This document shows, in pieces, positions 1,454-17,049 of a DNA stretch of 49,477 bases. The first letter of the stretch is position 1. Every line of letters starts with the position of its first letter. The notes beneath the pieces are model-generated. The model was not told the origin of the DNA and made no database searches. It worked only from the letters and a program-made list of their open reading frames with translations. The position numbers and the translations under genes were made by a program. The stretch is from positions 1-49,477 of the IMG/VR virus record IMGVR_UViG_2541047944_000004, one strand, 5' to 3'. This stretch comes from a virus. Lineage: Duplodnaviria > Heunggongvirae > Uroviricota > Caudoviricetes.

Positions 1454-1552
1454 CGCATCACCTCTGGCGGGCGACAATATTAGACTGAAATTGACGCCCG
1501 ACGTTGATTATTAATAATCAGCTATGAAGTTATAATTTGGATATAATGCAAC

Positions 1553-1741
1553 TCACGAGGGCAGAAGTTTCTCGCAATTAAAATTTATCAGCTTTACTTT
1601 CTGCTCTCTGGAAACGCCTGCTTCTTTTTTCCCCGAGAGCATTTTTTCGCATTCCGATTTGGTTAACTTTGTTTTTGAGTACCTTGTCCAGTTAGTAGGA
1701 GTGCCACCTTCCTTTTCAATAGTGGCGGTAATTTTATACAT
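1553..1741 (-). CDS. Hypothetical small protein (62 aa)
   Basis: ORF with strong GGAGG RBS 5 nt upstream of ATG at 1741; overlaps last codons of upstream gene. Confidence 0.5.
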   Translation of the reverse strand: MYKITATIEKEGGTPTNWTRYSKTKLTKSECEKMLSGKKEAGVSREQKVKLINFNCEKLLPS

Positions 1742-1964
1742 GAACACCTCCATTATTATTTCCAGTGGTTCGTTTATTCCATCGTTCGAGTGCTTCTTTT
1801 TCACTTCCACCATAGCCGGTTCGGGATTCGCATCCGTTACACTTCGCGCGGTAATATCCTGAAATGGCTTTCACCGTTACTGATGGACAACCACAAAACG
1901 GACATGGTTTGACTTTTGTGTATCGCACTGGTTTTTCTCCTGTGAGCTTTGTGGCTGCGCTCAT
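1734..1964 (-). CDS. Lar-family restriction alleviation-like zinc-ribbon protein
   Basis: Motif CPFCGC...CNGC in a 76-aa protein; start ATG overlaps exo stop (ATGA). Confidence 0.55.
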
Positions 1965-2641
1965 TTCCATTGCTCCCCAAATACAAAACCAATTTCAGCC
2001 AGTGCCTCGTCCATTTTTTCGATGAATTCTGGCACCATCTCGTCAAAACTCGCCATGTACTTTTCATCCCGCTCAACCACGACATAATGCAGGCCTTCAC
2101 GCTTCATACGCGGGTCATAGTTGGCAAAGTACCAGGCATCTTTTTGCGTCACCCACATGCTGTACTGCACCTGGGCCATGTAAGCCGACTTTATGGCCCC
2201 GAAACCACCGAGCCGGAACTTCATGAAATCCCGGGAGGTAAACGGGCATTTCAGTTCAAGGCCGTTACCGTCGTTGCATAAGCCATCGGGAGAGCAGGCG
2301 GTGCGCATAGTCTCGTCACGATAGATGATCGGGGATTCAGTAACATTCACGCCGGAAATGAACTCAAACAGGGCTCTGGCGTCGTTCTCGTACTGTTTTC
2401 CCCAGGCCAGTGCTTTAGCGTTAACTTCCGGGGTCACTCCGGTGCAGACCTCAGCCAGCAGGGTGTGGAAGTAGGACATTTTCATGTCAGGCCATTTCTT
2501 TCCTGAGCGGGGTTTTGCTATCACGTTGTGAACTTCTGAAGCTGTGATGACGCCGAGCCGTAATTTGTGCCACGCATCATCCCCTTGTTTAACAGTTCTC
2601 ACGTCGATTCCTGTACGTTGCAGGATAATGTCAGGAGTCAT
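1961..2641 (-). CDS. exo: Lambda exonuclease (Red-alpha)
   Basis: 226-aa translation near-identical to my recollection of lambda Exo ([15 protein letters not shown]...FVFGEQW). Confidence 0.95.
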
Positions 2642-3417
2642 GCTGCCACCTTCTGCTCTGCGGCTTTCCGTTTCAGGAATCCAAGAGTTTTCACTGCTTC
2701 GGTCTGCGTCAGTTCTGATGATGCGCGAATGTCGCGGCGAAGTATCTGGGAACAGAGCGGCAATAAGTCGTCATCCCATGTTTTATCCAGGGCGATCAGC
2801 AGAGCGTTAATCTCCTGCATGGTTTCATCGTTAACCGGAGTGATGTCGCGTTCCGGCTGACTTTCTGATGCGGTATTTTCGACAATGCGCTCGGCTTCAT
2901 CCTTGTCATAGATACCAGCAAATCCGAAGGCTAGACGGGCACACTGAATCATGGCTTTATGCCGTAACATCCGTTTGGGGTGCGACTGCCACGGCCCCGT
3001 AACTTCTTTGCCTTCGCGGGTTTTGAATGGTTCGCGGCGGCACTCATCCATCCACTCGGTAACGCAGATCGGATGATTGCGGTCCTTGCGGTAAATCCGG
3101 CATGTACAGGATTCATTGTCCTGCTCAAAGTCCATACCATCAAACTGCTGGTTTTCATTGATGATGCGGGACCAGCCATCAACGCCCACCACCGGAACGA
3201 TACCATTCTGCTTATCAGGGAAGGCGTAAATCTCTTTCGTCCACGGATTAAGACCGTACTGGTTGGCGACGATCAGCAGCGCGATGAATTGCGCATCGCT
3301 GGCATTGCCTTTAAATGCTGTCTGGCGAAGAGTGGCGAGCAGTTCCTGCGGGTCGACAGTATCCATGCCGACACGTTCAGCCAGCTTCCCGGCCAGCGTT
3401 GCGAGTGCTGTACTCAT
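2638..3417 (-). CDS. bet: Recombinase Bet (Red-beta, single-strand annealing protein)
   Basis: 259-aa translation near-identical to recollected lambda Bet ([18 protein letters not shown]...KAAEQKVAA); ATGA overlap with exo. Confidence 0.95.
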
Positions 3418-3422
3418 TCGTT

Positions 3423-3722
3423 TTATACCTCTGAATCAATATCAACCTGGTGACGCGCAATGGTTTCAACCATGTACCGGATGTGCTCCGCCACGCGTTC
3501 CTGAAATTCAACATCGTCATCAAATGCGCGACTGATTGCCTGTTTGCTGGCACCGTGGCGTTGCAAATGGTCGATGCAGAGCGATTCAAACAGGTGCTGG
3601 GGCAGACCTTTTTCCAGGTCGTCCGCCAGTTCCGTTTCTTTTTCTTCGCGAACGATCTTCTGGTAGTGGCGTGACCATGCCAGCTCTTCAATGCGATCAA
3701 AAATCGGGCATGTGCTCATCAT
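3423..3722 (-). CDS. gam: Gam, RecBCD inhibitor
   Basis: Translation matches C-terminal 98 aa of lambda Gam ([29 protein letters not shown]...HQVDIDSEV); start may be at internal Met because upstream gene overlaps. Confidence 0.85.
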
Positions 3723-5712
3723 CTGTTACCCCAAAATTTTCAAGTTTGTTTGCGATCATCATTGCAATACCCGGAATTAATGGCGCTGAGGCTATACCTG
3801 CAGGATTCGCACATAAACCGTAAACCGCCGCAATCACCACTTGTCTTTTCCAGTCGAGTTTTTCTAATGATGAAGCTGCTGCTTCGCCAGTTTCATCACT
3901 GCAATCGCGATGCGGATCGCTGCCAGCATTCTCCTTGTGTGGATGTTCAGCGCCTTCCATTTTCTCCGGCTCATTTTCCCGAACTTCAACCTGATTCTCG
4001 TCATCGAATGTTTCCTGATATATTGCGTCGCCCATCACCGCACCACAGTCAGGGCAGTTATCCCCGCTAGACTGACCGCAGGCATTGCAAACTTTTTCTA
4101 CTTCCTGTTGCGCCACTGGTTCAGGCTGTTTCGTTTCTGGCTCGTTTTGTAACGCATTTGGGCTGTTTTGTTCCGCTTTCTGGTCGTTCTGTTCCGATTC
4201 TTGTTGGTTCTGGTTCACTGAATCGCGGGTTTCAATCCCCTTCACCCATTTCGGATCATTCGGGTCGCTAATCCCCTCAACAAATTCACCACGTGATGCA
4301 GCAAGCAACTTATCGGCATCGACAGGATTTTTTGATGGAATGTTTTTCCGGGCTTCATGGAGTTCTGCCCGCAGTTCTTGATATTTCGCATCAACAGAAT
4401 TTACCTGTGACTGAGCATCCAGCGGCTGCGTGTCCTGATGATGTTCAGTTGCGTCCGGTTCCATTGTTTCAGCCTCTCCCTGTTCATCTGCCGTTGTTCC
4501 AGATGGTTGCGGTTTTTCTTCATCATCCTGTTTTCCTTCTTCTGTTACACGCTGCGGCATCGGGGCAGAGGAACGACCGCAGGCAATATCCACGATTTCC
4601 GGATCAGGGTTGGCATGATCAGTTTCAGTCAGTACTTTGTTCAGATATTCAGTGACGTGCGCGGGGGTGACCTCGATCCCAATTGGTGCTTCTTTCACGG
4701 ACGCAACCACGATGGCGCGGGAATAATCCAGCCCGCCAGGCATGGTGATGAATTTGTCGCGGAAAACAGAAAAGGGCGGTTTATTTTCAGCGATAATTTC
4801 CTCAATGCGTTTAGCGTGTGCCGGATGAAGGTTATAGATGTCCACGTCCATTGAACGGGCAAGTACGCCAGTGGCTACATCGCGTGCCAGTGACGTCAGA
4901 TCGTGGACGAAACCTTCGCCGCGATCGGTGAGGTTCCCGCCGCCAGCATTAGCACCGGAAGCCGTGCGAGTGATGCGTGAAACACGATTTCCTTTCATCC
5001 ACTCTTTTGTCAGCAGACCGCGATCGGTGTAGTCTGCGTCCAGGTATGCTTCGAAAAAAGCAGTCATCAGCCCCAGACTTGAATTGCCTGGATTAGGGAA
5101 AACTTTGTCAGTATCACGAACCAGTCTGTGAAGATCGCGAATCTCCAGCAGGTCGAGCAGGCTGGTTTTGTGGGAAACAGCCAGGGCAGTAACAGCTGGT
5201 AGTTCTTCAGCCCGTGCAATATGTAATGTCTGGAGTTCGTCGCGTGAAACGTGCGTTACCGGTTTTTCGCTGCCGTGTTGAGCAAGCCAGCGAATGGGCA
5301 GCTCTTGGCCAGAAATCGGGAGTAGCATATTCTCCTCAATCTCAGTCATGTCTTCGCCATTAACATTGGTATTGTCAGTGCTGGCTGGTTTGTCCTGCGC
5401 AGAGGATGAGGGCGCGATAAATACCATTGTGATGCCATCTTCCCCGCCTTTTTCGTAACGGTTGCAGAATTCCGTATCAAATACGCCTTCTGGTGGAAGG
5501 TCATCAACAACGGGCAAATTGACGCGAACAGGTTTTTTAAAGTCATCTTCATCGTAGCCAGCATCGTCAATCGCAACAGCACCACGGGAGATGGCAATGG
5601 ATAATTTTTTCGCTTCAGCCCAGTAGAAACCGCCTTTAATACCGAGACGTTTTCTTACTTTGTCATTTTTTGCTTCGTAATACAGTGGGTAAACTTGTTT
5701 ATCGGTGCTCAT
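3697..5712 (-). CDS. Large acidic hypothetical protein (671 aa) with CxxC...CxxC zinc-ribbon and C-terminal hydrophobic segment
   Basis: Long uninterrupted ORF in early-left operon upstream of gam; low-complexity Q/E/D/N-rich centre; CNACG...CPDCG motif; hydrophobic C-terminus. Confidence 0.6.
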
Positions 5713-5811
5713 TGTTTTTTAACCTCAACTCAGATTAAAATTACTGCGAGTGATGAATAAATGTCCCAGGTTCTTCACTCAGGCCTGCACAGTGTGCAGG
5801 CTTTCTTTTTT

Positions 5812-6087
5812 TCAGATTTCACCTTTTAATTTCATTGCAATCAGAGTTGCCAGAAATTCGGCTTTTTTTTCTGCTGGCAGATTCTTTCCTATGTGCACCA
5901 GACACATTTTTTTAACACCATCGTTAAGTGTTTTAACGTTGCCTGATGGACCGTCGATATCAACCACAGTGAATGGGGTTTCTTTATTTTCTGTCTTAAT
6001 CACGTAGCCAATACGCTTTCCTTCTAGGCTGACTTCGTGAACAATGTCATCAGTAGTAACAACAGTGGCTTCATAACTGGTAATCAT
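5812..6087 (-). CDS. Hypothetical early-left protein (91 aa)
   Basis: ATG at 6087 preceded by AAGGAG RBS; position corresponds to Ea10/YdfE region of lambdoid early-left operons. Confidence 0.55.
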   Translation of the reverse strand: MITSYEATVVTTDDIVHEVSLEGKRIGYVIKTENKETPFTVVDIDGPSGNVKTLNDGVKKMCLVHIGKNLPAEKKAEFLATLIAMKLKGEI

Positions 6088-6161
6088 GTTTTTCTCCTTA
6101 ATTAAGGTTGAGCGAATCCCTGCCATTGCTGGCATAAATTCAGTTTCGGATAGTCAGTTAA

Positions 6162-6338
6162 TTAAAGTTCGTGTGCCATCTGGTCTTTTTCGGCACAGAT
6201 TTCACTACAATATTTTTTCATTTCCGTCGTTGGTATAACTCCACGCATGAAATGAAGTGGTCTTGTAATGATTTTGCTTTCTTCAATTTCTTTATTGCAA
6301 AGGTGATAAGCACATTTTATTTTCTTAGTCATTACCAT
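6162..6338 (-). CDS. Small zinc-ribbon protein (58 aa), possibly YdfD-like
   Basis: ORF below the 60-aa track cutoff found by hand: [20 protein letters not shown]...[17 protein letters not shown]; Cys-x-x-His-x-Cys...Cys-x-x-x-Cys pattern; sits downstream of DicF/DicB-like genes. Confidence 0.4.
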
Positions 6339-6553
6339 GACTCCGCCTTTACAGGTAAACCATCACGACCGAGGAAGACTTTAATCATGCAGTCAGAAAT
6401 GCATGTTTTTGTAGTCAGGCTACGAATATAAAGTTTTCGCTTTTTAATATTGTTTGCCGAGGCGATATATGTCCGACCTTCATGAAGAACATAATCGCCA
6501 GGGGTCACACACTGACGTGGTATTTCATCAGTTCCGAAGTGATGAGCAATCAT
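6332..6553 (-). CDS. Putative DicB-like cell-division inhibitor (73 aa)
   Basis: First gene downstream of DicF-like sRNA (position of dicB in Qin); GGAGA RBS before ATG at 6553; weak similarity to recollected DicB around NNIKKRK. Confidence 0.4.
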
Positions 6554-6715
6554 AATTATCTCCATTTTTACAAATGAATTTTGTCGATGCGGTGCCTGGT
6601 GCCTCCAGGTGACGTTAACCAGTTAACAATTAACGCCGGATAATCCACCCATAACACTGATGCTTTTAACTGTGCCGCGTGCGCTTAGCCGCATTCACCG
6701 CATCACAAAATTCAC

Positions 6716-6779
6716 TTTAAAAAGGGGCGGCAGGGCAGCCACGGAGTAGAACTGATGCCGCTAAAGACTACACACAGCA
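6716..6779 (-). ncRNA. dicF: DicF-like small RNA (ftsZ-targeting) with intrinsic terminator
   Basis: Minus-strand sequence UUUAGCGGCAUCAGUUCUACUCCGUGGCUGCCCUGCCGCCCCUUUUU closely matches recollected E. coli DicF core and its GC hairpin plus U-run; exact 5' end uncertain. Confidence 0.6.
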
Positions 6780-6953
6780 ATGTCGTTATTTACAACCGGA
6801 GGCGCACTCCCACCATTTAAATTTAACAGACAAGACCGACTCTTTATGAATACCGGAAATGCGCCTTCGTGTTGTGCCCGGTTTTATTTCACCACCTCCG
6901 GGCTTTGGTGGTATCTTTACTGAAGTTCTCACACAACCAGTAAGGAAATGAAT

Positions 6954-7244
6954 ATGCCAACGTATCTCGCCAGAGTAGAACTATATAATGCTGAGCCAGA
7001 GGATTACGAAGGGCTTCATAAATATATGCTCTCACTAGGATTCAGGAGAACGATCCCCCATGGAGATGGTTCGTATAATCAACTCCCGGACGGAACTTAT
7101 GTTTCCGAAAAGGGCGGTGATATTTATCAAATTCGCAGCCAGATATCTGACTATGCAGACCTACTATCCAGGTATCGCGCGTCTGTTTTTGTTTGCGAAT
7201 TCAGTCAATGCGCATGGTATTTATACCCCGCCAAGACCCGGTGA
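6954..7244 (+). CDS. Hypothetical protein (96 aa) encoded antisense to the early-left operon
   Basis: ORF with AGGAAA RBS; convergent with and overlapping the 3' end of the minus-strand gene 7221..7424 by 24 nt. Confidence 0.4.
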   Translation: MPTYLARVELYNAEPEDYEGLHKYMLSLGFRRTIPHGDGSYNQLPDGTYVSEKGGDIYQIRSQISDYADLLSRYRASVFVCEFSQCAWYLYPAKTR

Positions 7245-7424
7245 ATATCCTGCACGGCCTTCTGCTTTGTAGAAGGCTTCTTCGCTATCATAATCGCCAG
7301 ATTCCAGTGCTTCTTTAGCCAGCCAGATGCGTGCCCCTGTGCCTGCATTTGGCTCCAGTTGCTGGAGGCGTTTTGCATCTTCCAGGAGTAGAGCGATAAC
7401 GTGTTTTAATTCTGTCTCGTTCAT
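7221..7424 (-). CDS. Small early-left protein (67 aa), YdfB/YdfC-like position
   Basis: ATG at 7424 two nt after stop of upstream gene, AGGTGA RBS; unknown function. Confidence 0.5.
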   Translation of the reverse strand: MNETELKHVIALLLEDAKRLQQLEPNAGTGARIWLAKEALESGDYDSEEAFYKAEGRAGYSPGLGGV

Positions 7425-7803: not shown

Positions 7804-7844
7804 TTGCGGTGAGTGTCATATGATGATGGTACAAAAAAGCCCGC

Positions 7845-7870
7845 TGATAGCGGGCTGATTGGCATATTAC
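7845..7870 (-). terminator. Rho-independent terminator downstream of repressor gene
   Basis: Minus strand: AGCCCGCtatcaGCGGGCT followed by TTTTTTG. Confidence 0.55.
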
Positions 7871-7886
7871 TGTGATAGCAAGATCA

Positions 7887-8306
7887 TTACTCCGGTGGGG
7901 GATTATCTTTAAGCCTGCCTCTCAAATATTTTTCTACATACTCATCGATTTCTTTTAGCCGGACTTCAAATAGCTCAATCATTCGTTGTTGTTCTGAGCC
8001 CGGTAGCTGGTTAAACAACTCAAGAAGTTTTCGTTGGGATTCATTTAACCACAATTCAGAAGATTCCTGTTCTCCAAAGAGGAGCTCAGGGGGAGATATG
8101 CCAAGTGCCTTTCCCAATACGACAGCGTCATGCACTCCAACATTTCTGCTGCCCGCCTCATAGTTACCTATACGCGATTGCGTCCATCCGCAGATTTCAG
8201 CAAGTTTTCCTTGAGATAAACCAAGCTTCTGCCTGCGCTCTTTAAGACGCATTGCAATTTTGTCATTGAGCCTACTAGCGGCAATTTTTTCGTTTTCTTT
8301 TTCCAT
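7887..8306 (-). CDS. Prophage repressor, HTH XRE family (CI/DicA/RacR-like), no S24 peptidase domain
   Basis: N-terminal HTH (LGLSQGKLAEICGWTQSRIGNYEAG), 139 aa; divergent from Cro-like gene; C-terminus lacks Ser-Lys peptidase motifs. Confidence 0.85.
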   Translation of the reverse strand: MEKENEKIAASRLNDKIAMRLKERRQKLGLSQGKLAEICGWTQSRIGNYEAGSRNVGVHDAVVLGKALGISPPELLFGEQESSELWLNESQRKLLELFNQLPGSEQQRMIELFEVRLKEIDEYVEKYLRGRLKDNPPPE

Positions 8307-14282: not shown

Positions 14283-14399
14283 CTTCAAACTAAAATTGTT
14301 GGCAGCAACATGTCCGATAGGTAGAATTGCTGCGGGTGCTTGAGGCTATCTGCCTCGAGCATGTCACCAAAGGCAGATAGAGAAAAGCCCCAGTTAACA

Positions 14400-14470
14400 T
14401 TCGGCGTCCGGCAAGACGCTTAACATTAATCTGAGGCCATATCTATGACTTGCACACGTAGGTTAGCCTC
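14400..14470 (-). ncRNA. Putative Sok-type antisense RNA region
   Basis: Inferred only from hok/sok family organization (antisense to hok leader); boundaries not determinable by eye. Confidence 0.3.
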
Positions 14471-14501
14471 TTACGTGCCGAAAGGCAAGGAGAAGCAGGC
14501 T

Positions 14502-14657
14502 ATGAAGCAGCAAAAGGCGATGTTAATCGCCCTGATCGTCATCTGTTTAACCGTCATAGTGACGGCACTGGTAACGAGGAAAGACCTCTGCGAGGTACGA
14601 ATCCGAACCGGCCAGACGGAGGTCGCTGTCTTCACAGCTTACGAACCTGAGGAGTAA
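14502..14657 (+). CDS. hok: Hok/Gef family type I toxin (HokD/RelF-like)
   Basis: MKQQKAMLIALIVICLTVIVTALVTRKDLCEVRIRTGQTEVAVFTAYEPEE matches Hok family; in-frame upstream extension from 14445 may be a mok-like leader. Confidence 0.85.
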   Translation: MKQQKAMLIALIVICLTVIVTALVTRKDLCEVRIRTGQTEVAVFTAYEPEE

Positions 14658-16895: not shown

Positions 16896-16971
<76 letters not shown>

Positions 16972-16974
16972 TAT

Positions 16975-17049
<75 letters not shown>

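Follow-up and report, generated by a model that had tools for sequence, protein, structure and literature searches.

A DicF-family small RNA with a KilS-type 5' arm ahead of kilR in a Rac-type prophage

The 49,477-nucleotide (nt) stretch of viral DNA analysed here, called the window below, is positions 1 to 49,477 of IMG/VR virus record IMGVR_UViG_2541047944_000004. Its minus strand carries a small RNA (sRNA) which, judged by its sequence, is a genuine member of the DicF family and is intermediate between DicF of the Escherichia coli K-12 prophage Qin and KilS of the K-12 prophage Rac. The sRNA is followed by a structured leader and by the genes kilR and ydaE, and the whole region 6162..6828 (-) is probably the early-left division-inhibition cassette of a Rac-type prophage, acting by the mechanism proposed below. 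All of its components come from known families, and it represents a known kind of division-blocking prophage module, in a variant that is ordinary but has not been remarked on before. The arm and loop combination found in this RNA, the relationship of DicF to KilS, and the presence of one leader before alternative toxins are apparently undiscussed in the searchable literature; the paper that describes KilS (PMC8175672) never mentions DicF (0 occurrences), and DicF has been surveyed only at >99% identity (PMC5069750).

DicF and KilS features of the RNA

A preliminary description of the window, made from its letters alone, had noticed a DicF-like segment with a terminator hairpin and U-run at 6716..6779 (-) and proposed a search with the DicF covariance model. 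That search, an Rfam scan of the whole window, matched DicF (RF00039) at 6776..6725 (-) with a score of 53.8 bits, above the gathering score of 48 (expectation value, E, 4.3e-9); the match spans the full model (positions 1-52), and a permissive local Rfam scan found it again (E 6.1e-11). Chance alone does not account for the sRNA call, and the terminator is also present, with C + UUUUU at 6724..6719. On the same model K-12 DicF (b1574) scores 76.7 bits and K-12 KilS (b4833) 39.1 bits (below threshold, E 1.4e-5), so that the window copy lies between them. A DicF-family non-coding RNA (ncRNA) is missing from the RefSeq annotation of this locus.

In a three-way alignment of the window with K-12 Rac and K-12 Qin, the window RNA has a Rac-type 5' side and a DicF-type loop, and the downstream leader is common to all three. 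Compared with K-12 DicF, the hairpin of the DicF-homologous core (6725..6776, -) matches at 33/38 positions, the loop and 3' side together at 28/31, and the 5' arm at no more than 6/14. The 8-nt loop motif ACUCCGUG (6740..6747, -), with the anti-Shine-Dalgarno CUCCG, is present in the window and in K-12 DicF, is absent from K-12 KilS, and is a candidate anti-ftsZ seed; the loop as a whole reads UUCUACUCCGUGGCUGCCCUG in the window and UUUUACUCCGUGACUGCUCUG in DicF, and the KilS loop, UUUUUUUCUUGAAGUUCGGCUGAUG, is unrelated. The 5' arm CAUUGCUGUGUGUAGUC (6766..6782, -), the other candidate seed, is identical to that of K-12 KilS, and the flank upstream of it is near-identical to K-12 Rac. The DicF 5'-end seed UUUCUGGUGAC, which serves xylR, is absent from the window RNA, where the Rac-type GUGUGUAGUC is found instead, and DicF 5'-end targets such as xylR are thus not expected in common. 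The window, on this alignment, carries a Rac-lineage copy that still holds the DicF loop.

The intrinsic terminator hairpin (AGCGG...CCGCC), together with its C + UUUUU, occupies 6719..6762 (-); a simple terminator scan flags 6742..6727. Its fold energy is -13.9 kcal/mol, compared with -15.9 kcal/mol for DicF and -19.5 kcal/mol for KilS. The base of the stem is kept across 21 diverse variants, with GGCGG/CCGCC changed once to GGUGG/CCACC. RNAalifold recovered just this 5-base-pair (bp) stem base from the sRNA variants, because the inner helices are class-specific, and an 11-bp helix in the KilS register was therefore specified by hand; 89% of its cells pair in the 21 variants, against 26-71% when the partner is slid, and it includes 2 compensatory pairs.

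The 5' end of K-12 KilS (1418502) maps to window position 6813, since both transcripts would begin GUGGGAGUGCGCC. By positional orthology to kilS, the predicted primary transcript in the window is ~94 nt long, up to the U-run (6719..6813, -). Just upstream, and placed by its position relative to the KilS 5' end, is a predicted extended -10 promoter, TGTTAAATT (6820..6828, -), in which TAAATT can be read at -12..-7 and TG at -15/-14; a generic sigma-70 scan did not flag it. KilS was predicted from Hfq RIL-seq (RNA interaction by ligation and sequencing) data, was verified by northern blot, and reportedly can be transcribed from its own promoter, with its own transcription start site (PMC8175672, Bar et al. 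2021), and the window RNA may likewise have a promoter of its own. In this it would differ from DicF, which is made by termination and RNase III/RNase E processing of the DicA-repressed dicBp transcript (bioRxiv 10.1101/2023.04.14.536235).

The KilS RNA itself (locus L002, 7406..7503) has its terminator base and downstream leader in common with DicF, and because it also matches the DicF model it is, as far as such comparison can tell, a diverged DicF paralog. In K-12 Rac it is annotated as an ncRNA between sieB and kilR, the same position as the window sRNA; the two RNAs share their location in the kilR 5' region, 5' end, 5' arm, upstream flank, terminator base, U-tail, leader and downstream kilR-ydaE genes, but their loops are wholly different and the mature sequences are therefore not the same. 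With DicF the window RNA shares the full-length covariance-model match, the terminator hairpin and U-tail, ACUCCGUG, the predicted register on ftsZ, and the same structured leader with a division inhibitor beyond it. It differs from DicF in its unrelated 5' arm, in its upstream flank (Rac-type, not ydfC-dicF) and in the downstream gene, which is kilR and not dicB.

The leader and the genes downstream

Between the sRNA and kilR lies a structured, STnc100-like leader (6573..6718, -) of ~146 nt, extending from the U-run to ~20 nt before the kilR ATG, in which two well-conserved blocks flank a variable centre. It is ~90% identical to the dicF-dicB intergenic region and common to KilR and DicB cassettes, and the homology ends just ahead of each toxin's own ribosome-binding site (~20 nt before the start codon). 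RNAalifold predicts 42 pairs in the leader, comprising a 21-bp closing helix that joins its two ends and three conserved hairpins. Pairing in this structure holds for 99.4% of cells and falls to 32-43% when it is slid; helix 3 contains two compensatory pairs, and the closing helix has just one-sided, wobble-preserving changes. The single-sequence fold of the window leader has z = -2.95, and here the closing helix runs over the U-tail and stops right before the kilR Shine-Dalgarno sequence. In this folding model the closing helix, of at least 21 bp, could plausibly be cut by RNase III, which would detach the sRNA from the mRNA of kilR and ydaE. A conserved small open reading frame (ORF) in the leader (MRLSARGTVK...) was considered and rejected, because the central segment is non-homologous between cassettes and its indels are not multiples of three.

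The Rfam family STnc100 (RF02076) matches 6546..6735 with 44.3 bits against a gathering score of 47 (E 2.9e-8), and the leader aligns to the entire model, with both the closing helix and the CCUGGAGGCACCAGG hairpin covered. The likeness is incomplete in that the score falls just under the gathering score and in that the window element plainly belongs to kilR as its 5' leader rather than standing alone as an sRNA gene. This suggests that STnc100 represents the leader of prophage genes for division inhibitors rather than an sRNA in its own right. We note that STnc100 matches at the window leader, at L001 2933..3142 and at L002 7223..7409 score 34-44 bits, always just below 47.

The first gene after the leader, kilR (6332..6553, -; 73 amino acids, aa), encodes the FtsZ/cell-division inhibitor of Rac. 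Its product matches NCBIfam NF008465 ("FtsZ inhibitor protein") over residues 1-73 of 73 with 160.9 bits (cutoff 92), is 95% identical to K-12 KilR, which is annotated as an FtsZ inhibitor, and falls in phrog_294 ("Kil protein for bacterial septation inhibition"); GGAG stands 7 nt upstream of the ATG. KilR is also reported to inhibit both the cell division and elongation machineries (PMC12482147). The next gene, ydaE, encodes 56 aa (6162..6332, -; RefSeq start) or 58 aa (6162..6338, -), and the RefSeq start, 6 nt later than that of the longer form, gives a TAATG stop/start overlap with kilR. The YdaE product matches NF041288 with 87.5 bits (cutoff 35) and is 73% identical to K-12 YdaE, which is annotated as a zinc-binding protein; it has a C-x4-C ... 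C-x3-C cysteine pattern and matches the Pfam Rtr1/RPAP2 zinc finger with 31.7 bits (gathering score 33). RefSeq annotates kilR and a "YdaE family protein" here in genomes with 99.5-99.9% identity to the window over 5800..7300. Farther on is a racC-like gene (5812..6087, -; 91 aa) in the K-12 racC position (NF007306, 202.4 bits against a cutoff of 171). The PHROGs matches are in agreement with these family assignments.

Proposed action of the cassette and other explanations

We propose two possible origins of the sRNA: a KilS-type extended -10 promoter of its own would give a ~94-nt transcript, or the RNA would be processed out of a leftward transcript under repressor control. In both cases it would end at the intrinsic terminator. 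Its loop and 3' side would pair with the ftsZ ribosome-binding site and lower FtsZ synthesis, as has been shown experimentally for DicF, and the KilS-type 5' arm may also pair with the 5' untranslated region (UTR) of yncL. Transcripts that read through the terminator would fold into the leader, with a closing helix of ~21-27 bp that ends just before the kilR Shine-Dalgarno sequence; RNase III would probably cut this helix and so release the kilR-ydaE mRNA from the sRNA, after which KilR protein would inhibit FtsZ directly. The net effect would be an attack on FtsZ by both an RNA and a protein, in parallel with Qin DicF and DicB but by way of a non-homologous protein.

DicF pairs through its 3' region with the ftsZ ribosome-binding site, as compensatory mutants have shown, and represses translation; its 5' end serves xylR (PMC5069750). 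The best local duplex of the window sRNA on ftsZ covers -28..-7 at -22.7 kcal/mol, equal in register and energy to that of K-12 DicF, and the loop by itself gives -22.0 kcal/mol, against -18.8 kcal/mol for the DicF loop. The local duplex search did not find the DicF register on ftsZ for KilS or for other loop types; the U-rich loop of K-12 KilS could pair with ftsZ GAGAGAAACU at -17.7 kcal/mol, which is not significant against shuffles. Full-length RNAduplex predictions against the ftsZ leader were uninformative: all three RNAs (window, DicF and KilS) gave long gappy duplexes whose energies were alike. The window RNA retains the portion of DicF that pairs with ftsZ, and on this homology it is predicted to repress ftsZ. 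On the 5' side, the arm forms a predicted duplex of -18.7 kcal/mol with the yncL 5' UTR (-37..-15), an energy reached by 3/300 shuffles, and the DicF arm gives merely -11.0 kcal/mol on the same target. This predicted site fits the RIL-seq partner listed for KilS, yncL (PMC8175672), and the window RNA may therefore carry two seeds with different ancestry.

Several observations count against this proposal. The energy of the window-ftsZ duplex is equalled by 15/100 shuffles of the whole sRNA and by 33/300 shuffles of the loop; the validated K-12 DicF-ftsZ duplex fares no better (16/100 whole, 43/300 loop), so the thermodynamic test is powerless, and we dropped duplex energy as evidence for ftsZ pairing. 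The energies cannot discriminate, and the ftsZ claim therefore rests on homology. The loop substitution U28C, relative to DicF, costs an A-U pair in the ftsZ duplex, and KilS, the positional ortholog, has yncL and not ftsZ as its sole reported target (PMC8175672). At the outermost stem pair, which is G-C in 20/21 variants, the window copy carries an A.C mismatch, and the minimum free energy (MFE) structure of the 94-nt transcript favours an alternative pairing over the terminator hairpin; we regard the mismatch, the weaker hairpin and the alternative MFE fold as a caveat rather than a finding. Finally, the RNase III site that has been mapped in Qin lies upstream of DicF, where it makes the 5' end of a 190-nt DicF species (bioRxiv 10.1101/2023.04.14.536235), and cleavage in the leader is our inference.

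Three other explanations can be set beside the proposed one. The RNA could act as KilS does, with the Rac-type 5' arm as its relevant seed (for yncL, for example) and the DicF-like loop as an inherited terminator loop that has no role at ftsZ. The identity of the 5' flank, promoter region and 5' arm to those of K-12 KilS fits this idea, as do the yncL site, which few shuffles matched, and the ftsZ pairing energies, which did not exceed those of shuffles; yet the 8-nt ACUCCGUG and 28/31 positions of the part of DicF shown by experiment to pair with ftsZ are kept, although the entirely different loops of other cassettes argue that an unconstrained loop is free to change. The two seeds are, moreover, not mutually exclusive, and we judge a purely KilS-like action to be unlikely. 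It is more doubtful still that the element works only in cis, as a terminator or attenuator and processing signal that silences a toxic kilR, with no trans function and an Rfam match that reflects shared terminator ancestry. The terminator hairpin does make up much of the DicF model, hairpin and leader are conserved while arm and loop vary, the closing helix of the leader stops just before the kilR Shine-Dalgarno sequence, and kilR is toxic and reportedly kept silent in K-12. However, the homologs DicF and KilS are bona fide trans-acting or Hfq-associated sRNAs, the single-stranded loop retains the DicF seed exactly, and a pure terminator has no need of a 5' arm, yet this one is 100% conserved with KilS.

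The preliminary description had taken the locus for a Qin-type dicF-dicB-ydfD module, with the 73-aa ORF as DicB-like and the 58-aa ORF as a zinc-ribbon gene in the ydfD position. The general architecture (DUF1391 gene, sRNA, leader, division inhibitor, small protein) is indeed parallel, the leader is as close to Qin as noted above, and the best NCBIfam match of the repressor is DicA, below its cutoff. But BLASTP gave no alignment, even at E<=100, between the 73-aa ORF and K-12 DicB or between the 58-aa ORF and K-12 YdfD, so the comparison with K-12 dicF-dicB-ydfD does not extend to the proteins, and matches to KilR, YdaE and RacC are all above their cutoffs. The 73-aa ORF is kilR; the 58-aa ORF exists and encodes a zinc-binding protein, as described, but that protein is YdaE and is not YdfD-like. 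The genes are arranged as in K-12 Rac (recE'-racC-ydaE-kilR-sRNA-(+ strand gene)-ydaG-ydaF(DUF1391)-repressor / cro-like-ydaT), so the module is Rac-type; the block is collinear with Rac and not with Qin, and we give a Qin-type module next to no credence. As far as homology can be detected, the "DicB-like" and "ydfD" labels are valid only as positional analogies.

As such an analogy the Qin dicBF operon (ydfABC-dicF-dicB-ydfD) is a close one. Both are repressor-controlled early operons with a DUF1391 gene, an anti-ftsZ-type sRNA, the shared leader, a protein division inhibitor and a small downstream ORF; the effectors, however, are non-homologous, being DicB and YdfD in Qin and KilR and YdaE in the window. 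DicB acts through MinC and ZipA.

Distribution of the cassette and its prophage context

The 23 nt that follow the terminator do not vary among the window, K-12 Rac and K-12 Qin, and occur once in the window (0 expected by chance). A search with this anchor found at least 120 phage-contig loci and 17 loci from species-representative genomes, a sample that is biased by the exact anchor, and the following locus counts are of the matches listed and are not population frequencies. They include at least 44 distinct sRNA sequences. A DicF arm and DicF loop precede DicB and YdfD at 73 loci and KilR at 3 loci; a Rac arm and KilS loop precede KilR and YdaE at 23 loci; and the window combination, a Rac arm and DicF loop before KilR and YdaE, is found at 4 loci, the window itself, the near-identical genome L003, L095 and L117. 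Further loop types stand before either toxin, KilR-YdaE or DicB-YdfD lying downstream in the ~140 cassettes sampled. Extra loop classes on the same scaffold, before DicB, KilR or other ORFs, are AUUGCUGGCUG (L127, L019, L054, L085), GUUUUCCC (L107, L113, L114, L063) and a short hairpin (L125, L024); the DicF register on ftsZ was found by none of these three. The exact anchor is also present on four contigs of metagenome-assembled genomes labelled Veillonella parvula, Candidatus Nanosynbacter, Collinsella and "Proteobacteria bacterium" (L132, L136, L138 and L139), which are most likely mis-binned Escherichia prophage contigs.

Full-length sRNA matches in 5,426 complete E. coli genomes give canonical DicF in 3,971, the K-12 KilS type in 1,450 and the window type in 91, of which 8 are 100% identical to the window. 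None of the matches listed for the three types has an annotated feature under it. Carriers of the window type include O55:H7 CB9615, O55:H7 DEC5A and O157:H7 493/89, and in CB9615 the sRNA lies between the DUF1391 gene and kil, inside racR…recE.

DicF is a textbook prophage sRNA that is usually regarded as a Qin/dicB feature, and the present locus shows its scaffold serving Rac-type prophages as well, and the cassette of RNA and leader joined to two unrelated proteins that inhibit FtsZ. It is quite possible, and we suggest it tentatively, that DicF and KilS form a single family with a constant scaffold (terminator stem, U-tail and RNase III-type structured leader) on which 5' arm, loop and downstream toxin are exchanged independently, and that the window RNA is a bifunctional chimera of a KilS seed for yncL and a DicF loop for ftsZ. 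If so, the toxins exchanged would be KilR-YdaE or DicB-YdfD, each with its own ribosome-binding site, the window RNA would be the link that shows K-12 KilS to be a DicF paralog stripped of its anti-ftsZ loop, and ~1.7% of E. coli genomes would have a Rac prophage that hits FtsZ with both RNA and protein. Counts of dicF made at near-identity in pathogenic lineages (O55:H7/O157) would, if the loop is functional, miss the window type. The locus also provides a clean set of natural alleles with which the two DicF seeds can be dissected, and the main practical consequence is one of annotation: kilR/ydaE in place of dicB/ydfD, and a DicF-family ncRNA where RefSeq has none.

The preliminary description had also seen a mosaic join to lambda Red here. 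The join is real, but this Rac/lambda junction is located ~2.4 kb from the sRNA, inside recE, and the adjacency of kilR to the RecE N-terminal region is native to Rac. Over residues 40-587 of K-12 RecE, a 671-aa ORF (3697..5712, -) shows 82% identity; nothing in it corresponds to residues 588-866, and it matches Pfam Exonuc_VIII in its N-terminal part only. It is a RecE N-terminal region without the nuclease domain, and its final ~60 residues are unrelated to RecE. In place of the nuclease domain and recT stand gam (3423..3722), bet (2638..3417) and exo (1961..2641), a lambda Red block (1961..3722, -) with Pfam scores of 187.3 bits (Gam), 115.8 bits (RecT, for Bet) and 104.9 bits (YqaJ, for Exo), which also carries these names in related RefSeq genomes; the possibility that RecET had been misread as lambda Red is ruled out by these matches. 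The recE'/Red arrangement is present, over at least 80% of 1500..7300, in about 13 complete E. coli genomes.

On the other side of the cassette, a cI-type repressor with a DicA-like helix-turn-helix is encoded at 7887..8306 (-) (Pfam HTH_3; NCBIfam DicA 57.2 bits, below the cutoff of 101), with a terminator-like site near it at 7856..7838. By analogy with DicA and dicBp in Qin, it presumably controls leftward early transcription through the kilR module. This immunity repressor is not RacR, and O55:H7 CB9615 has racR beside the same sRNA type; the immunity region has therefore been swapped independently of the kilR cassette.

A 98-aa ORF on the other strand (6948..7244, +) occupies the slot of K-12 Rac sieB. 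It matches phrog_8894 with 128.9 bits and the NCBIfam "YmfI family phage protein" with 52 bits (cutoff 140), has no Pfam match, and is without annotation in the 99.9%-identical RefSeq genome PEC148 (L003). The junction at ~6950 is found in just ~12 complete genomes, and the ORF may be a cargo or exclusion gene in a variable slot. Elsewhere in the window, Rfam matches above gathering score include the RalA antitoxin sRNA at 1557..1735 (+) (216.7 bits), which overlaps the Lar/RalR-DUF1187 region, the sok antitoxin RNA at 14334..14507 (+) (114.1 bits), which implies a hok-type toxin nearby, and two adjacent tRNA genes at 16896..17046 (+).

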